Positions 38,017-42,732 of a stretch of 64,000 nt of DNA are shown here, one piece after another. How positions within the stretch are numbered: position 1 is the stretch's first letter; each line of letters opens with the position of its first letter. The notes beneath the pieces are model-generated. The model was given only the letters and a program-made list of their open reading frames with translations. It had not been told where the DNA came from and searched no databases. The stretch spans positions 2,976,001 to 3,040,000 of the forward strand of contig CM039000.1 of NCBI GenBank assembly GCA_017499595.2. Direction: 5' to 3'. The position numbers and the translations under genes are program-made. Origin of the DNA: Psilocybe cubensis. Its lineage: Eukaryota.

Positions 38017-39265
38017 ATGTCAGCGACTACCAGCACCAGCGACAATGCTCGTCACGCACTCGAAATGGAATCCGAACTTATGCGTCGCTTTCCCGTACCA
38101 CCGACATTTGAATCCAAGCTTGAGGAGCGGGACTACTTGAAATTCCGACTCGCCCAAGCGTTTCGCATCTTTGGTACATCTGATACATCCTCTACGCGAA
38201 ATAAGCTCATTGTTTTTTCTTTACTTCTAAGGTAATCTGGGATATAATGAGGGTGTCGCCGGCCATATCACTGTGCGGGTAAGTAGTATGCGAGCACAAG
38301 ACCTGGCATGAAACTGTTGGCCGTACTTACTCTAAATTGACGATCATAGGACCCAATAAAGCCCGATTGTTTCTGGGTCAATCCATTTGCAAGTCATTGG
38401 TCACTAAACATCTAGACCCCATGTCTAATAGGCTTTCAGGGATTGCACTTCAGTTTAATCCAACCATCGGATTTACTTCTGGTGGAGTGCGTATTTTAAT
38501 CTAGGTCATGATATGCTGATCTCATGAATTTATAGTCATCAAGGCAAAATCCTCGTGCGCAGTGTCAATCCTTTTTGCCTTCATTATTCAAATGACTTTA
38601 CCAGGACGAATCAGGACCAAGGAGGATTCTGAACGTGGCGGCCTACATGATCCATTCGACTTTACATGCTGCGCGGCCCGATGTTTTATGTGCGGCCCAC
38701 ACACATTCCATCCATGGGAAAGCTTTTTCTACTCTGGGAATCCCACTTGATATGCTGACCCAGGACACATGCGCATTTCATGACGTAATTTTTTTTTTAA
38801 TTTGCGGTCCGAGCTGGCAGATTTTGACCCCCAATGCTATCTATAAATAGGATCACGTCGTCTATACTCAGTTCAAGGGTGTAGTTTTGGACCTTGAGGA
38901 AGGCAAGGCCATAGCGGCGGCCCTTGGAAGCAAGAAGGTACTGTTTTTTAAATGCAATTTTTGTCCGCTTTCTGAACCAGGCAGCGTAGGCCGCAATATT
39001 GCAAAACCATGGAATTCTAGTTGCGACGGATTCTATTGAAGCAACAGTTTTCTTTTTCATCGCTTTAGAAAAGGCGTGTCAAGTCCAACTTTTAGCCGAC
39101 GCCGCTGCTGGTGGAACAGGCAGAGCTACTGTCAAAATTGCTCCTGATGATGCTCTCAATACCTACAAGAAAAATGGCACTCTTCGAGTTGGATGGTTCC
39201 AAGGCCTCCCTGAATTTCAGCTCTTGGAAGCTCGTGAAGGCAAAACTTTCAACTCCACGAAATAA
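38017..39265 (+). CDS. Class II aldolase/adducin-domain protein
   Basis: EGVAGHITVRDP, FWVNPFGLHF, IHSTLHAARPDVLCAAHTHS (HxH Zn ligands), LQNHGIL. Confidence 0.92.
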
Positions 39266-39554: not shown

Positions 39555-42500
39555 ATGCGTCTTCTGGCATTCGCCCACATCATCTGCCTGTCGGTTAATC
39601 TCATCTCCGCAAATCACAACGTATACGAGAGAAATCTTGCCTACAAGTCACCGTTTGTTGACCACCCTCAGGTACGAAGCAGTATTGTTAAGCGCTGGAC
39701 TCTTGTTGTTAATTATCACCGCGACTTCAGCTTGCCCACAACACTAGAAACCTCCATGACACCAACATTCAACGCCGACAAACTATTGATGCGGCCAGTT
39801 TCAAAGATGAGCATTACATTACTTTCTATGGATCAGATTTTAGCAATGTAAGTTTCTTTCTTAATCCTCTTTCCAGGAATAACCGTAGTGATGAAACTAT
39901 AGAGTCCCTTTATATGGAGTGGAGGAGTAAACTTCACACACTCAGGTACGCCTTTCTTTTTGTCTCACAACGAGCGCTTATCTTCCCTTTTTATTTAAAT
40001 TACTTTTGGGCAGTCGCCAGTGTAGGTCTCACAACATACCCTTTCATGTTTAAAACTTACCATTGTTTACCAGGGAGATCCGTTCGATACATCCGTTCTT
40101 CTTTGGACGCGTGCTGTTCCAATTTCCTCTACTGGTGCTTTACCGGACCAAAGCGTGCCTGTTTGCTTATCTTTCAAAATTGCTACCACCTCCGACCTAT
40201 CTGGAAAAATCATAGATAGTGGAGAAGCTTTTACCAGCTATGACGTTGACTGGACAGTTAAGGTTGAAGCCTCGGGTTTGAAACCGGATACAAAATACTT
40301 CTATCAATTCAGCGACTGTGCTTCAAAAACATCAAGTCCTATTGGCTCCACCCGAACAATCGCAAGTGCAAATAGTATGTCTCAAGAACGGTCCCAACCT
40401 CCCGTCTGTCTGACAGCTTGACACCAGCTGCGGCTCGCTCCGTTAACGGCGGAAAACCTTTGGTTCTGGCAGTGTTTTCGTGTTCTCAGTATCAAGCCGG
40501 TACGGCTATCTAACACCTGACGGTTTCTGAAAAGACTTAATGTTCCCTGAGCAAGGATGGTTCAACGCATATGGCTTTGCTGCCCATAATACGACAGCAG
40601 ATATATTTATACACCTTGGTGATTATGTGCGTCAGGCATCTAAGAAGCTTATGTGTTCTATGGAAAACTGATCTTGTCTTCAATAGATTTACGAATCTTT
40701 GGGTAGTGGGTAAGTTCCAACCCAGGACTCCAATTTTAGCTGTAAATTTACCGACTTGGATTACTCTCTCCAGTGCCAAGATCGGCAGACAAACTCTGGG
40801 CCGCGAGCTGGCGACCATTCACGACTATCGACAACGACTCAACCAATACAGAACGGATCAGAGCCTTGTTACTGCGCACCAGAATGCCCCATGGATTACA
40901 GTTTGGTATGTTCACCCTATTCACTGTCTAAAATGTTACTGAAAAGAACGTCATGCTCTGAAATGATCCAAAAGGGCAAGCACCCTCTTCCTCGTTATGT
41001 CTTTTCTTCTTACGCATTTTGGGTATTATAGGATGACCATGAGGGACGCATTTTCAACTTGCTCATATTGCTTACTTCATCTAACCGGTTCTAATAACGG
41101 CGTAAATAGGTCGCAGACAACTCCTGGAAGGCAGGCACGGCAGATTCTAATGACACCACCATTGGCTGCGCCTTTTCTCCCTCGGGAGCGTGTTTCACTG
41201 ATCGGAAGCTGGCGGCCGTGCGCGCTTATCACGAATGGATGCCAATCCGTCAGGTCGACCCCCAGGACAAGCTCAGGATATGGAGAAACTTCCAAATTGG
41301 AAAGCTACTAGATCTTACCATGCTTGATACTCGTAAGTTTCTGATTATCTCTGTTTCTTGCAATTTCTTGATGATGGCCTATATGTGACGCTGTGTTTTG
41401 TCCAGGTCAATATGACCGGGATCTTACTGATGTAGGTTGTTTTTCTTGGATTCGTCTCCACATGATTCCAACACGGCGTACTCACTCGGTCTTTATTAGG
41501 TTTACTACAACACCGGTAAGTCACAAAAATGAACCAGGCCTTGGTGACCGACGTAATGATGGTTCTATTTTTAGAATGTATGTTGGGACTTAGATCCATT
41601 TGCTATGACATGAACAAAACATCGACATTGTCACTCAACTGCTTTTATAGATGTGAACACTATTTCCTCATTTGCGAACCGGTCGCTGATGGGAGCCGCC
41701 CAAGAACAATGTAAAAACCCCTGTCATGGCCACTCATATGGCGCACTGACGGTAGCATATTCAGGGCTGTTCGATACAGTGTCGGAGTCCGAGAAGCGAG
41801 GAGCGGTTTGGCGTGTTCTAGGGTGAGCATTGTGGTTGGGAATCTCAAGTTAGAAGTTATCTCAGCTTGTAATTTAGTCAACAGATAGTTTTCACACAAC
41901 TAAACGAATCAGGAGCATGTGGGCGTTTACTCTCAATCAGACATTGTTTTTCGGCGCTGACCTAACATCACTAATTTGCGTCAGTTGACTTGGTTAGTGT
42001 AACGAGGCTGTATTTTATGGTGCTTCATTTAATTTAAATTCGAAAGGATGCATGGGATGGATACCGGGCCAATCGTGCTCGCGTGCTCGACCATCTCTAC
42101 AACAACAAGATCAGCAATACCATCATTTTATCTGGAGACAGCCACGCTAACTGGGTATCTGATCTAGCTCGTAGGTCCACTCTATGACTGATATTTGGTA
42201 GGTGCACTAACAACTTGTTTCAATTTCTACAGATCCCAATGACACAGTAACGTATGCATCATAGGAATTGTTCAGTTTGATTATTGTTGTACTAACTGGT
42301 TGTAGCTACAACCCTACCACGGGTGCAGGTGCTATTGGTGTGGAGTTTGCGGGTACTGCCGTTACATCAGGGTCTGCCTTTGGTAGTGGTATCACTCCTG
42401 AGAAGGCAGATGTTATATCACGCACTCTCGTCGATGTCAATGCTGACCTTCAATGGAGCGAAGGATCTTATCGTGGCTTCTTCACATTGTCGATTGACTC

Positions 42501-42732
42501 AGACCATCTGAATGCTACCTACTATGCTATGCGGAACGTCTGTAAGTTCTATTTTACTTGTTCTTTCATTTTGCGACTGGGTCTAATTGGCATTTCTATG
42601 ACTTTCTCAGCTTTCGCTAATCTTGATGGATTTGCGAGCGCACAATTCACCGTCAAGGCTGGACAAAATAGACTCTCACGACCAGTCGCTGGTGGATCTG
42701 TCAACGCGGGCGTGTTGAAGTCCCAATTATAG
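39555..42732 (+). CDS. Secreted PhoD-type alkaline phosphatase/phosphodiesterase, highly fragmented gene
   Basis: Signal peptide MRLLAFAHIICLSVNLISA; FTHSVASGDP, HLGDYIYE, WDDHEVADN, MLDTRQY, DAWDGY, LSGDSHANW, GVEFAGTAVTS. Confidence 0.92.

Follow-up and report, generated by a model that had tools for sequence, protein, structure and literature searches.

How does a PhoD-like phosphatase gene of Psilocybe cubensis encode the tryptophan (Trp) of its WDDHE motif, when the exon that carries the first two bases of that codon and the exon that carries DDHE leave the third base unaccounted for? The gene lies within a 64,000-nucleotide (nt) stretch of P. cubensis DNA (GenBank assembly GCA_017499595.2, contig CM039000.1, positions 2,976,001 to 3,040,000 of the forward strand), which is referred to as the window and whose numbering is used throughout. 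A first-pass annotation of the window proposed that the missing base is a single-nucleotide exon, the G at 40975, located between two abutting introns (introns 9 and 10), and that the 12-nt DDHE exon downstream is followed by an intron with a GG donor (intron 11). Every coordinate and sequence element that it gave was found in place, its intron sizes (69, 56, and 66 nt) were correct, and GTACGC is indeed used as a donor elsewhere, at intron 3 of the same gene. We are highly confident that the G at 40975 is a real exon. With more reserve, we favor an overall reading in which this constitutive exon completes the Trp codon and the GG donor is most likely disabling.

Evidence bearing on a single-nucleotide exon

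Exon 9 closes on TG (phase 2), the DDHE exon opens in phase 0, and omission of the G between them shifts the frame and leads to a stop at codon 366. In the window, an AAAAG whose last base is 40974 is followed by the lone G and then by GCAAGC from 40976 (AAAAG-G-GCAAGC, 40970-40981, where hyphens mark the proposed exon boundaries). If this G is an exon, the gene has 22 introns, every one of them 52-73 nt long, and the two that flank the G fall within the range of the other 20.

Orthologous loci were compiled by scanning metagenome contigs with exon 12, which yielded 24 fungal loci. Among these, 21 genomic loci from other Agaricomycetes (L001 and L003-L022) share the intron position of the window; they are metagenome-derived, and comparison with named proteins provides only rough nearest relatives, with no orders assigned. 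Exactly one AG-G-GY, comprising an acceptor, a lone G, and a GT or GC donor, was identified in all 21 loci within the 102-132 nt that extend from ..GTNTG to GAYGAYCAYGAR, and the stretches on either side of this central element measure 50-64 and 50-71 nt. The donor after the lone G is GT in 20 of the loci and GC in the other (L019), and the DDHE exon is kept as GAYGAYCAYGAR in all 21 as well as in L002, a sequence that resembles complementary DNA (cDNA). The interval is otherwise saturated, with identities of 47-56% among seven lineages (12 distinct sequences).

When the 126-nt interval of the window was shuffled, an AG-G-GY that left halves of at least 45 nt was recovered in 1.8% of 20,000 trials. 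For the 12 distinct sequences, the corresponding frequency of a permissible AG-G-GY was 0.6-7.2% of 20,000 shuffles per sequence. Judged by these shuffles, by the intron sizes and open frame that it yields, and by its presence in all 21 loci, the AG-G-GY pattern exceeds chance. A strict CTRAY branch motif was detected 11-27 nt ahead of the central AG in nine of the 12 distinct sequences, with near-consensus motifs in the window, L005, and L019.

The junction was also evaluated in proteins. We gathered 186 relatives and sorted them by regular expression at the WDDHE junction. Of these, 18 are encoded only on short metagenome, metatranscriptome, or run-assembly contigs and were treated as a transcript-like set, 12 members of which span the junction; all 12 read xWDDHE. 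The cDNA-like L002 contains a continuous open reading frame (ORF) of 330 amino acids (aa) that spans the positions of 11 window introns and reads TGG GAT GAC CAT GAG GTC. Comparison of loci (21 of 21) and transcripts of relatives (12 of 12) strongly support the putative 1-nt exon with its flanking introns, GT-AG and GC-AG, as the first-pass annotation had drawn them. The layout looks like an inherited, constitutive gene structure that is common to orthologues across the Agaricomycetes.

The 1-nt exon appears to be widespread, not universal. Two more distant PhoD relatives have other layouts at the same motif, ~250 nt upstream of the match start: in L032, the exon C TGG GAC G (8 nt) is flanked by an intron on each side, and in L033 a single intron falls within the second Asp codon. 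Since these layouts differ, intron positions around WDDHE have shifted in evolution.

Gene structure, active site, and public gene models

The gene at 39555..42732 (+) is a PhoD-like phosphatase gene with 23 exons. Its model, assembled with related proteins as guides, has a coding sequence of 1833 nt (610 codons) and no internal stop, and the product aligns end to end with a transcript-like relative (P0032; 473 identical residues in 608 columns, seven gap columns). The family profiles PF09423 (278 bits, cut-off 27) and PF16655 (83 bits, cut-off 30) match the public P. cubensis model P0002, and they also match single exons of the gene. Exon translations of the window match public models P0001 and P0002 (519 and 596 aa) at 100% identity; both models lack DDHE and several other small exons. 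No second PhoD copy was found by tblastn within the window. Intron donors in the gene are GT in 20 of 22 cases, GC in one (40976), and GG in one (41044), and the AAG acceptor that closes intron 9 is also used at two other introns. Tiny exons are abundant (1, 3, 8, 8, 12, 16, 19, 23, and 26 nt). The features that surround the junction, together with the other ultra-short exons and two variant alleles discussed below, are compiled in Table 1.

Table 1. Positions in the window of features of the PhoD-like phosphatase gene and of variant alleles.
Feature	Position	Strand	Description
Exon 9	40774..40905	+	last bases ..ATT ACA GTT TG, with ACAGTTTG as the exon end; phase 2, first two bases of the Trp codon
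Intron 9	40906..40974	+	69 nt; GTATGT...AAG; near-consensus branch motif CTGAA 13 nt from the 3' end
Single-nucleotide exon (proposed)	40975..40975	+	G; third base of the WDDHE Trp codon; restores the frame
Intron 10	40976..41031	+	56 nt; GC-AG; GCAAGC...TAG (TATAG to 41031); CTTAC 19 nt from the 3' end
12-nt exon	41032..41043	+	GAT GAC CAT GAG (GATGACCATGAG); DDHE, with the two putative calcium-ligand aspartates
Intron 11	41044..41109	+	66 nt; GG-AG; GGACGC...TAG (AATAG to 41109); branch motifs CTAAC and CTAAT
Exon 12	41110..41332	+	VADNSWKAG...LDTR; first bases GTCGCAGAC; Asp-Asn pair aligns with ligands N271/N272
8-nt exon	40014..40021	+	TC GCC AGT
8-nt exon	41985..41992	+	TT GAC TTG, part of FDL
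3-nt exon	41575..41577	+	AAT; leaves two introns of 59 and 73 nt in place of an apparent one of 135 nt
87-nt deletion	41980..42066	.	run X3 and one X2 contig; record contiguous across the joint
Probable insertion junction	41514..41515	.	part of X1 and X2 reads; 3' end of the 16-nt exon 41500-41515

The reference for the active site was Bacillus subtilis PhoD (2YEQ), with metal ligands C180, D207, D265, D266, N271/N272, and D436. P0032 aligns with this protein (E = 4e-70, residues 87-609), and WDDHEV is aligned to WDDHEV. In the bacterial enzyme, the D265A, N271A, and N272A substitutions abolish activity, and the activity of D266A is drastically reduced (PMC4223295). The spacing in DDHEVENN would fit D265, D266, N271, and N272. 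Alignment, published mutagenesis, and residue spacing all point to the WDDHE aspartates as the probable counterparts of the calcium-ligand pair D265/D266, in keeping with the first-pass annotation, which had taken WDDHE for a PhoD metal-ligand motif. As in B. subtilis PhoD (PDB 2YEQ), the motifs FSCSQY, GDYIYE, WDDHEVADN, and GDSHA are kept in the conceptual product; unlike the bacterial gene, the gene described here is eukaryotic, intron-rich, and of a secreted type, and is known from its sequence. DDHE enters the product only when the GG intron is removed, and loss of DDHE should abolish activity.

The consequences of this junction for gene annotation are evident in public databases. Among 144 genome-derived public models that cover the junction, sorted by regular expression, 28 were correct and 116 were wrong. 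The wrong models omit VW or DDHE, carry extra residues behind the W, or are frame-shifted upstream of it, and both P. cubensis models skip DDHE (VWYVADN and ITVADN). Such scattered errors would be expected from gene callers that permit only GT-AG introns and are faced with a one-base phase gap. Because 116 of 144 junctions are wrong, many fungal PhoD entries look catalytically dead or frame-shifted though they are not.

A second double-length intron (135 nt, 41516-41650) conceals the 3-nt exon AAT of Table 1, which contributes to the Glu and the Tyr of YYNT-EY-VNT; its inclusion leaves one gap column fewer in the alignment with P0032. The TAG-AAT-GT-type layout (TAG-NNN-GT) is kept in L001, L003, L004, and L019, and the upstream intron is lost in L005. 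Upstream of the phosphatase gene, a class II aldolase/adducin-domain gene occupies 38023-39187 (+). In public models P0003 and P0058 of Psilocybe cyanescens and Panaeolus cyanescens (868 and 852 aa), the aldolase/adducin and PhoD parts are joined. These two proteins look like gene-model fusions, and the gene order is also conserved.

The GG donor, variant alleles, and competing explanations

The GC donor of intron 10 is ordinary. Its G-GCAAGC agrees with the donor consensus at +3 to +5, the TAG acceptor is normal, and a GC donor is found at the homologous position in L019 (GCACGT). In the curated annotation of Ganoderma lingzhi, GC-AG is reported to account for 1.85% of splice-site pairs.

The GG donor of intron 11 differs in this respect. 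Among the 19 loci that have an intron after the DDHE exon, the donor is GT in 10, GC in nine, and GG in none; L005 and L019 have no intron at this position. The nearest loci have GTACTG (L001) and GTACGT (L003), and the window has GGACGC, in which the T or C of relatives is replaced by G at 41045. The window donor looks like a GTACGC that underwent a T-to-G change at +2. The gene model of P. cyanescens retains DDHE, which suggests that the donor is canonical there. The GC donors of this intron are all GCAGGA and occur in L007, L008, and L012-L018, whose nearest named relatives are Agaricaceae, and the sister group (L006, L009-L011) has GTAGGA.

We consider the GG donor to be peculiar to this species and probably a disabling lesion. 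Alignment of orthologues, which the first-pass annotation had put forward as a check on both oddities, separates them, in that AG-G-GY is conserved (21 of 21) and the GG donor is not (0 of 19). All three rare features that were said to cluster on the active site are thus present, but they do not comprise one phenomenon: the 1-nt exon is conserved, the GC donor is ordinary, and the GG donor is probably a species-specific lesion. Likewise, a dead allele, one of the explanations first offered for the whole cluster, is the likeliest reading for the GG donor alone.

No alternative in-frame donor that keeps both WDDHE and the 1-nt exon was identified in the window. As computed, skipping of the 12-nt exon causes an in-frame loss of DDHE, retention of intron 11 leads to a stop at codon 316 (the in-frame stop at 41092-41094 in ORF 41032..41094), and skipping of both micro-exons leads to a stop at codon 362. 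A protein-database search for ORFs of other strains over 41045, made with the 114-aa off-frame ORF 40967-41308, returned no match.

We propose that a constitutive G at 40975, situated between two complete introns of normal size, supplies the last base of the Trp codon in the catalytic WDDHE motif. The splice sites of short-intron fungi are probably paired across introns, and two introns one base apart would be removed one after the other, in a process that resembles recursive splicing but keeps one base. Stepwise removal is suggested by geometry: with a single base separating the acceptor from the donor that follows, the two would overlap in the space that a spliceosome occupies, and the introns would therefore have to be removed in turn. 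The GG most likely disables the intron-11 donor. A failed donor would result either in an in-frame protein that lacks DDHE, if the 12-nt exon is skipped, or in a message truncated at codon 316, if the intron is retained, and either product would amount to a null or severely weakened allele. We infer both the splicing order and the failure of the GG donor from the arrangement of the sites and their comparison among loci.

Three sequencing runs were used to evaluate the underlying sequence. Contigs from runs X1, X2, and X3 span 40884-41097 at word depths of 88, 15, and 24, and since they contain introns and exons contiguously, the runs represent DNA. Over 3.2 kilobases (kb), indels in these runs were detected at 40724, 41356, and 41384, together with an 87-nt skip; none was detected at 40905 or 41032. 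X1 and the window disagree at five positions in all, none of them 41045 or 40977, and X1 confirms the G at 41045. X2 and X3 are ~3% divergent from the window, and the divergent haplotype has 72 differences, 37 of which were examined.

Two further lesions were identified in these runs. The 87-nt deletion covers an acceptor, an 8-nt exon, and an intron and reaches 20 nt into the DAWDGY exon; 28 coding nt are lost in all, and this is a clear null allele of the gene. At 41514/41515, reads run off into loose ends that are mutual reverse complements (inverted-repeat ends) with a 2-nt overlap, and the uninterrupted site is also spanned by a contig of 58 nt. Such ends suggest an insertion at the 3' end of the 16-nt exon. 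The window contains 0 copies of a 12-nt motif taken from the inverted-repeat end of the inserted sequence. There are thus three different lesions (GG donor, 87-nt deletion, and insertion) across three runs, all of which are filed under one study. They suggest relaxed constraint, with the phosphatase gene decaying or dispensable in the sampled strains.

Several observations weigh against the reading that we favor. With regard to the 1-nt exon, the branch motifs of intron 9 in the window are only near-consensus, and its acceptor is AAG. No same-species pair of cDNA and genomic sequence was found among the metagenome loci, where identities between L002 and the genomic loci do not exceed 79%, and a search for transcript-derived P. 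cubensis proteins with exon 12 returned only the genome models P0001 and P0002 as 100% matches. One possible RNA run (X4) placed nothing on the stretch, which says nothing about expression either way. The 1-nt exon and the fate of the GG intron in P. cubensis are consequently deduced from relatives and sequence. With regard to the GG donor, the 1833 nt of this allele are otherwise intact. Exons contain 16 of the 37 differences examined in the divergent haplotype; these affect 15 codons, with synonymous changes in 10 and non-synonymous changes in five, and the difference rate is 2.3% in exons vs 5.1% outside. The low exonic rate and the synonymous excess indicate that the gene was constrained until recently, which also fits a working GG donor. 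The G at 41045 was read in X1; for the divergent haplotype (X2, X3), three G>T changes in each run, one of them among the 37 examined differences, are only a weak hint on 41045. Finally, the manually curated G. lingzhi annotation lists 20 GG-AG introns (0.022% of splice-site pairs).

These latter points bear on an alternative that accepts the 1-nt exon and holds that the GG-AG intron is spliced well enough for the gene to function, with GG as a rare but working non-canonical donor. Beyond the open frame, the codon changes, and the G. lingzhi introns, this alternative is favored by the intact branch motifs and TAG acceptor of intron 11 and by the G at 41045 in both X1 haplotypes (a single collapsed contig), which shows that the variant is not a private error. 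Yet GG is the donor in none of the 19 orthologous loci. The remainder of GAG-GGACGC is no nearer to consensus than the GTACGN donors of the gene, and therefore nothing compensates for the GG; to our knowledge, donor position +2 is nearly invariant in all spliceosomal introns. The other clearly disruptive alleles in the runs likewise argue against it. We regard a working GG donor as possible but unlikely. A specific form of the idea, in which P. cubensis splices the GG-AG intron and the stepwise removal of three packed introns tolerates a non-GU donor, seems more doubtful still; if true, it would provide a natural working GG donor within a micro-exon cluster at a catalytic motif.

The remaining explanations challenge the 1-nt exon itself or its constitutive nature. 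The first-pass annotation had raised a regulated switch, in which ordered splicing would control the output of phosphatase. This idea draws on the sequential splicing that two abutting introns would need, an argument likewise made for Arabidopsis APC11 (PMC4674806), and on the in-frame skipping of the 12-nt exon, the product of which would be inactive. The switch is contradicted by the inclusion of both micro-exons in all 12 transcript-like relatives and by an architecture that is conserved in 21 of 21 loci and is not peculiar to this one; moreover, the other ultra-short exons (3, 8, and 8 nt) lie away from the active site and no alternative isoforms were seen in the data examined. We consider it very unlikely. 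The frame could also be kept without any 1-nt exon, by way of a GT donor at 40910 and the acceptor at 41031 (VWYDDHE) or through a non-canonical splice-site shift of one base. Donor 40910 does leave an open frame in the window, and several public gene models from other species read VWYDDHE; the extra residue is nonetheless found in none of the 12 transcript-like proteins, and GTTCAC is a poorer donor than the GTATGT four bases upstream. Several relatives (e.g., L003 and L005) would read TGG TGA, a stop, and the VWYDDHE route is therefore not general. Both forms of this explanation were rejected because the transcript-like proteins lack an extra residue and because neither form would account for the conserved central AG-G-GY, the second branch motif, or an interval of double length; we judge this explanation highly improbable. 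A one-base deficiency and a single odd base have the typical shape of a sequencing or assembly error, which could in principle underlie the missing G, the GG donor, or both, as the first-pass annotation had allowed. The run contigs without an indel at either exon boundary, the agreement of X1 with the window at 41045 and 40977, and the recurrence of the one-base deficiency in 21 of 21 independent metagenome loci all argue to the contrary. Assembly error is rejected for the one-base deficiency, as is a sequencing error for the G at 41045 in at least one further run (X1), and we give almost no credence to error as an explanation of the two features.

Relation to known systems

Single-nucleotide exons have been described in few reports, namely for Arabidopsis APC11, for Fusarium CYP621A, and for thirteen unnamed Coprinopsis genes. 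As a class they are already known, and the PhoD-like phosphatase adds another member. A literature search identified no paper that links PhoD with micro-exons among the matches listed, and nothing relevant for Pholiota and PhoD. What is distinct about the PhoD case is that it is conserved across mushroom lineages and that its codon adjoins two predicted catalytic calcium ligands. The junction is a good natural system for the ordered removal of introns that lie one base apart.

The closest taxonomic comparison is with Coprinopsis cinerea, which belongs to the same fungal class. Its long-read annotation counts thirteen 1-nt exons, distributed over 13 genes, and internal exons of at most 15 nt occur in 1,165 of its gene models (PMC12230235); Agaricomycetes are thus already known to have ultra-short exons. 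The main text of that paper, as available, names no genes and contains no reference to PhoD, alkaline phosphatase, or phosphodiesterase; its supplementary gene list may include the orthologue (PMC12230235).

The constitutive 1-nt exon of Arabidopsis APC11 was shown experimentally with substitution and deletion constructs (PMC4674806). Flanked by GT...AG introns, it is, like the proposed PhoD exon, needed to keep the frame and had been annotated wrongly. The mechanism proposed for it, intron definition with stepwise, recursive-like removal, parallels the one that we infer here. It differs in that APC11 is a plant gene with long introns, an A as the exon, and experimental proof, whereas the PhoD exon is drawn from sequence comparison.

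The Fusarium CYP621A genes, which encode P450s, contain a single-nucleotide exon with an AGGGT pattern within an apparent intron of 139 nt, compared to a median of 56 (PMC12940212). The two cases share an AG-G-GT-type pattern with the G inside the codon of a conserved motif, a double-length apparent intron, exon phases that are irreconcilable without the base, and conservation of the site among orthologues. They differ in protein (PhoD-like phosphatase vs P450) and phylum (Basidiomycota vs Ascomycota), and also in that the G is the third base of a Trp codon here and the middle base of a Gly codon there, with a GC donor downstream in the PhoD-like gene. The PhoD arrangement is conserved over at least seven lineages with saturated introns, whereas that of CYP621A is described from one genus; support in Fusarium came from Sequence Read Archive reads of the same species and here comes from transcripts of relatives.

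Finally, the PhoD junction resembles the stwintrons of Pezizomycotina in that two U2 introns are in contact, are excised consecutively (a step that is predicted here), and together form a double-length intervening sequence. The first-pass annotation had called the arrangement twin-intron-like, a description that we set aside. In a stwintron, as described, the internal intron splits a donor, branch, or acceptor signal of the external intron and nothing is retained; at the PhoD junction, the signals of both introns are uninterrupted, and the mRNA must retain the base that separates them.

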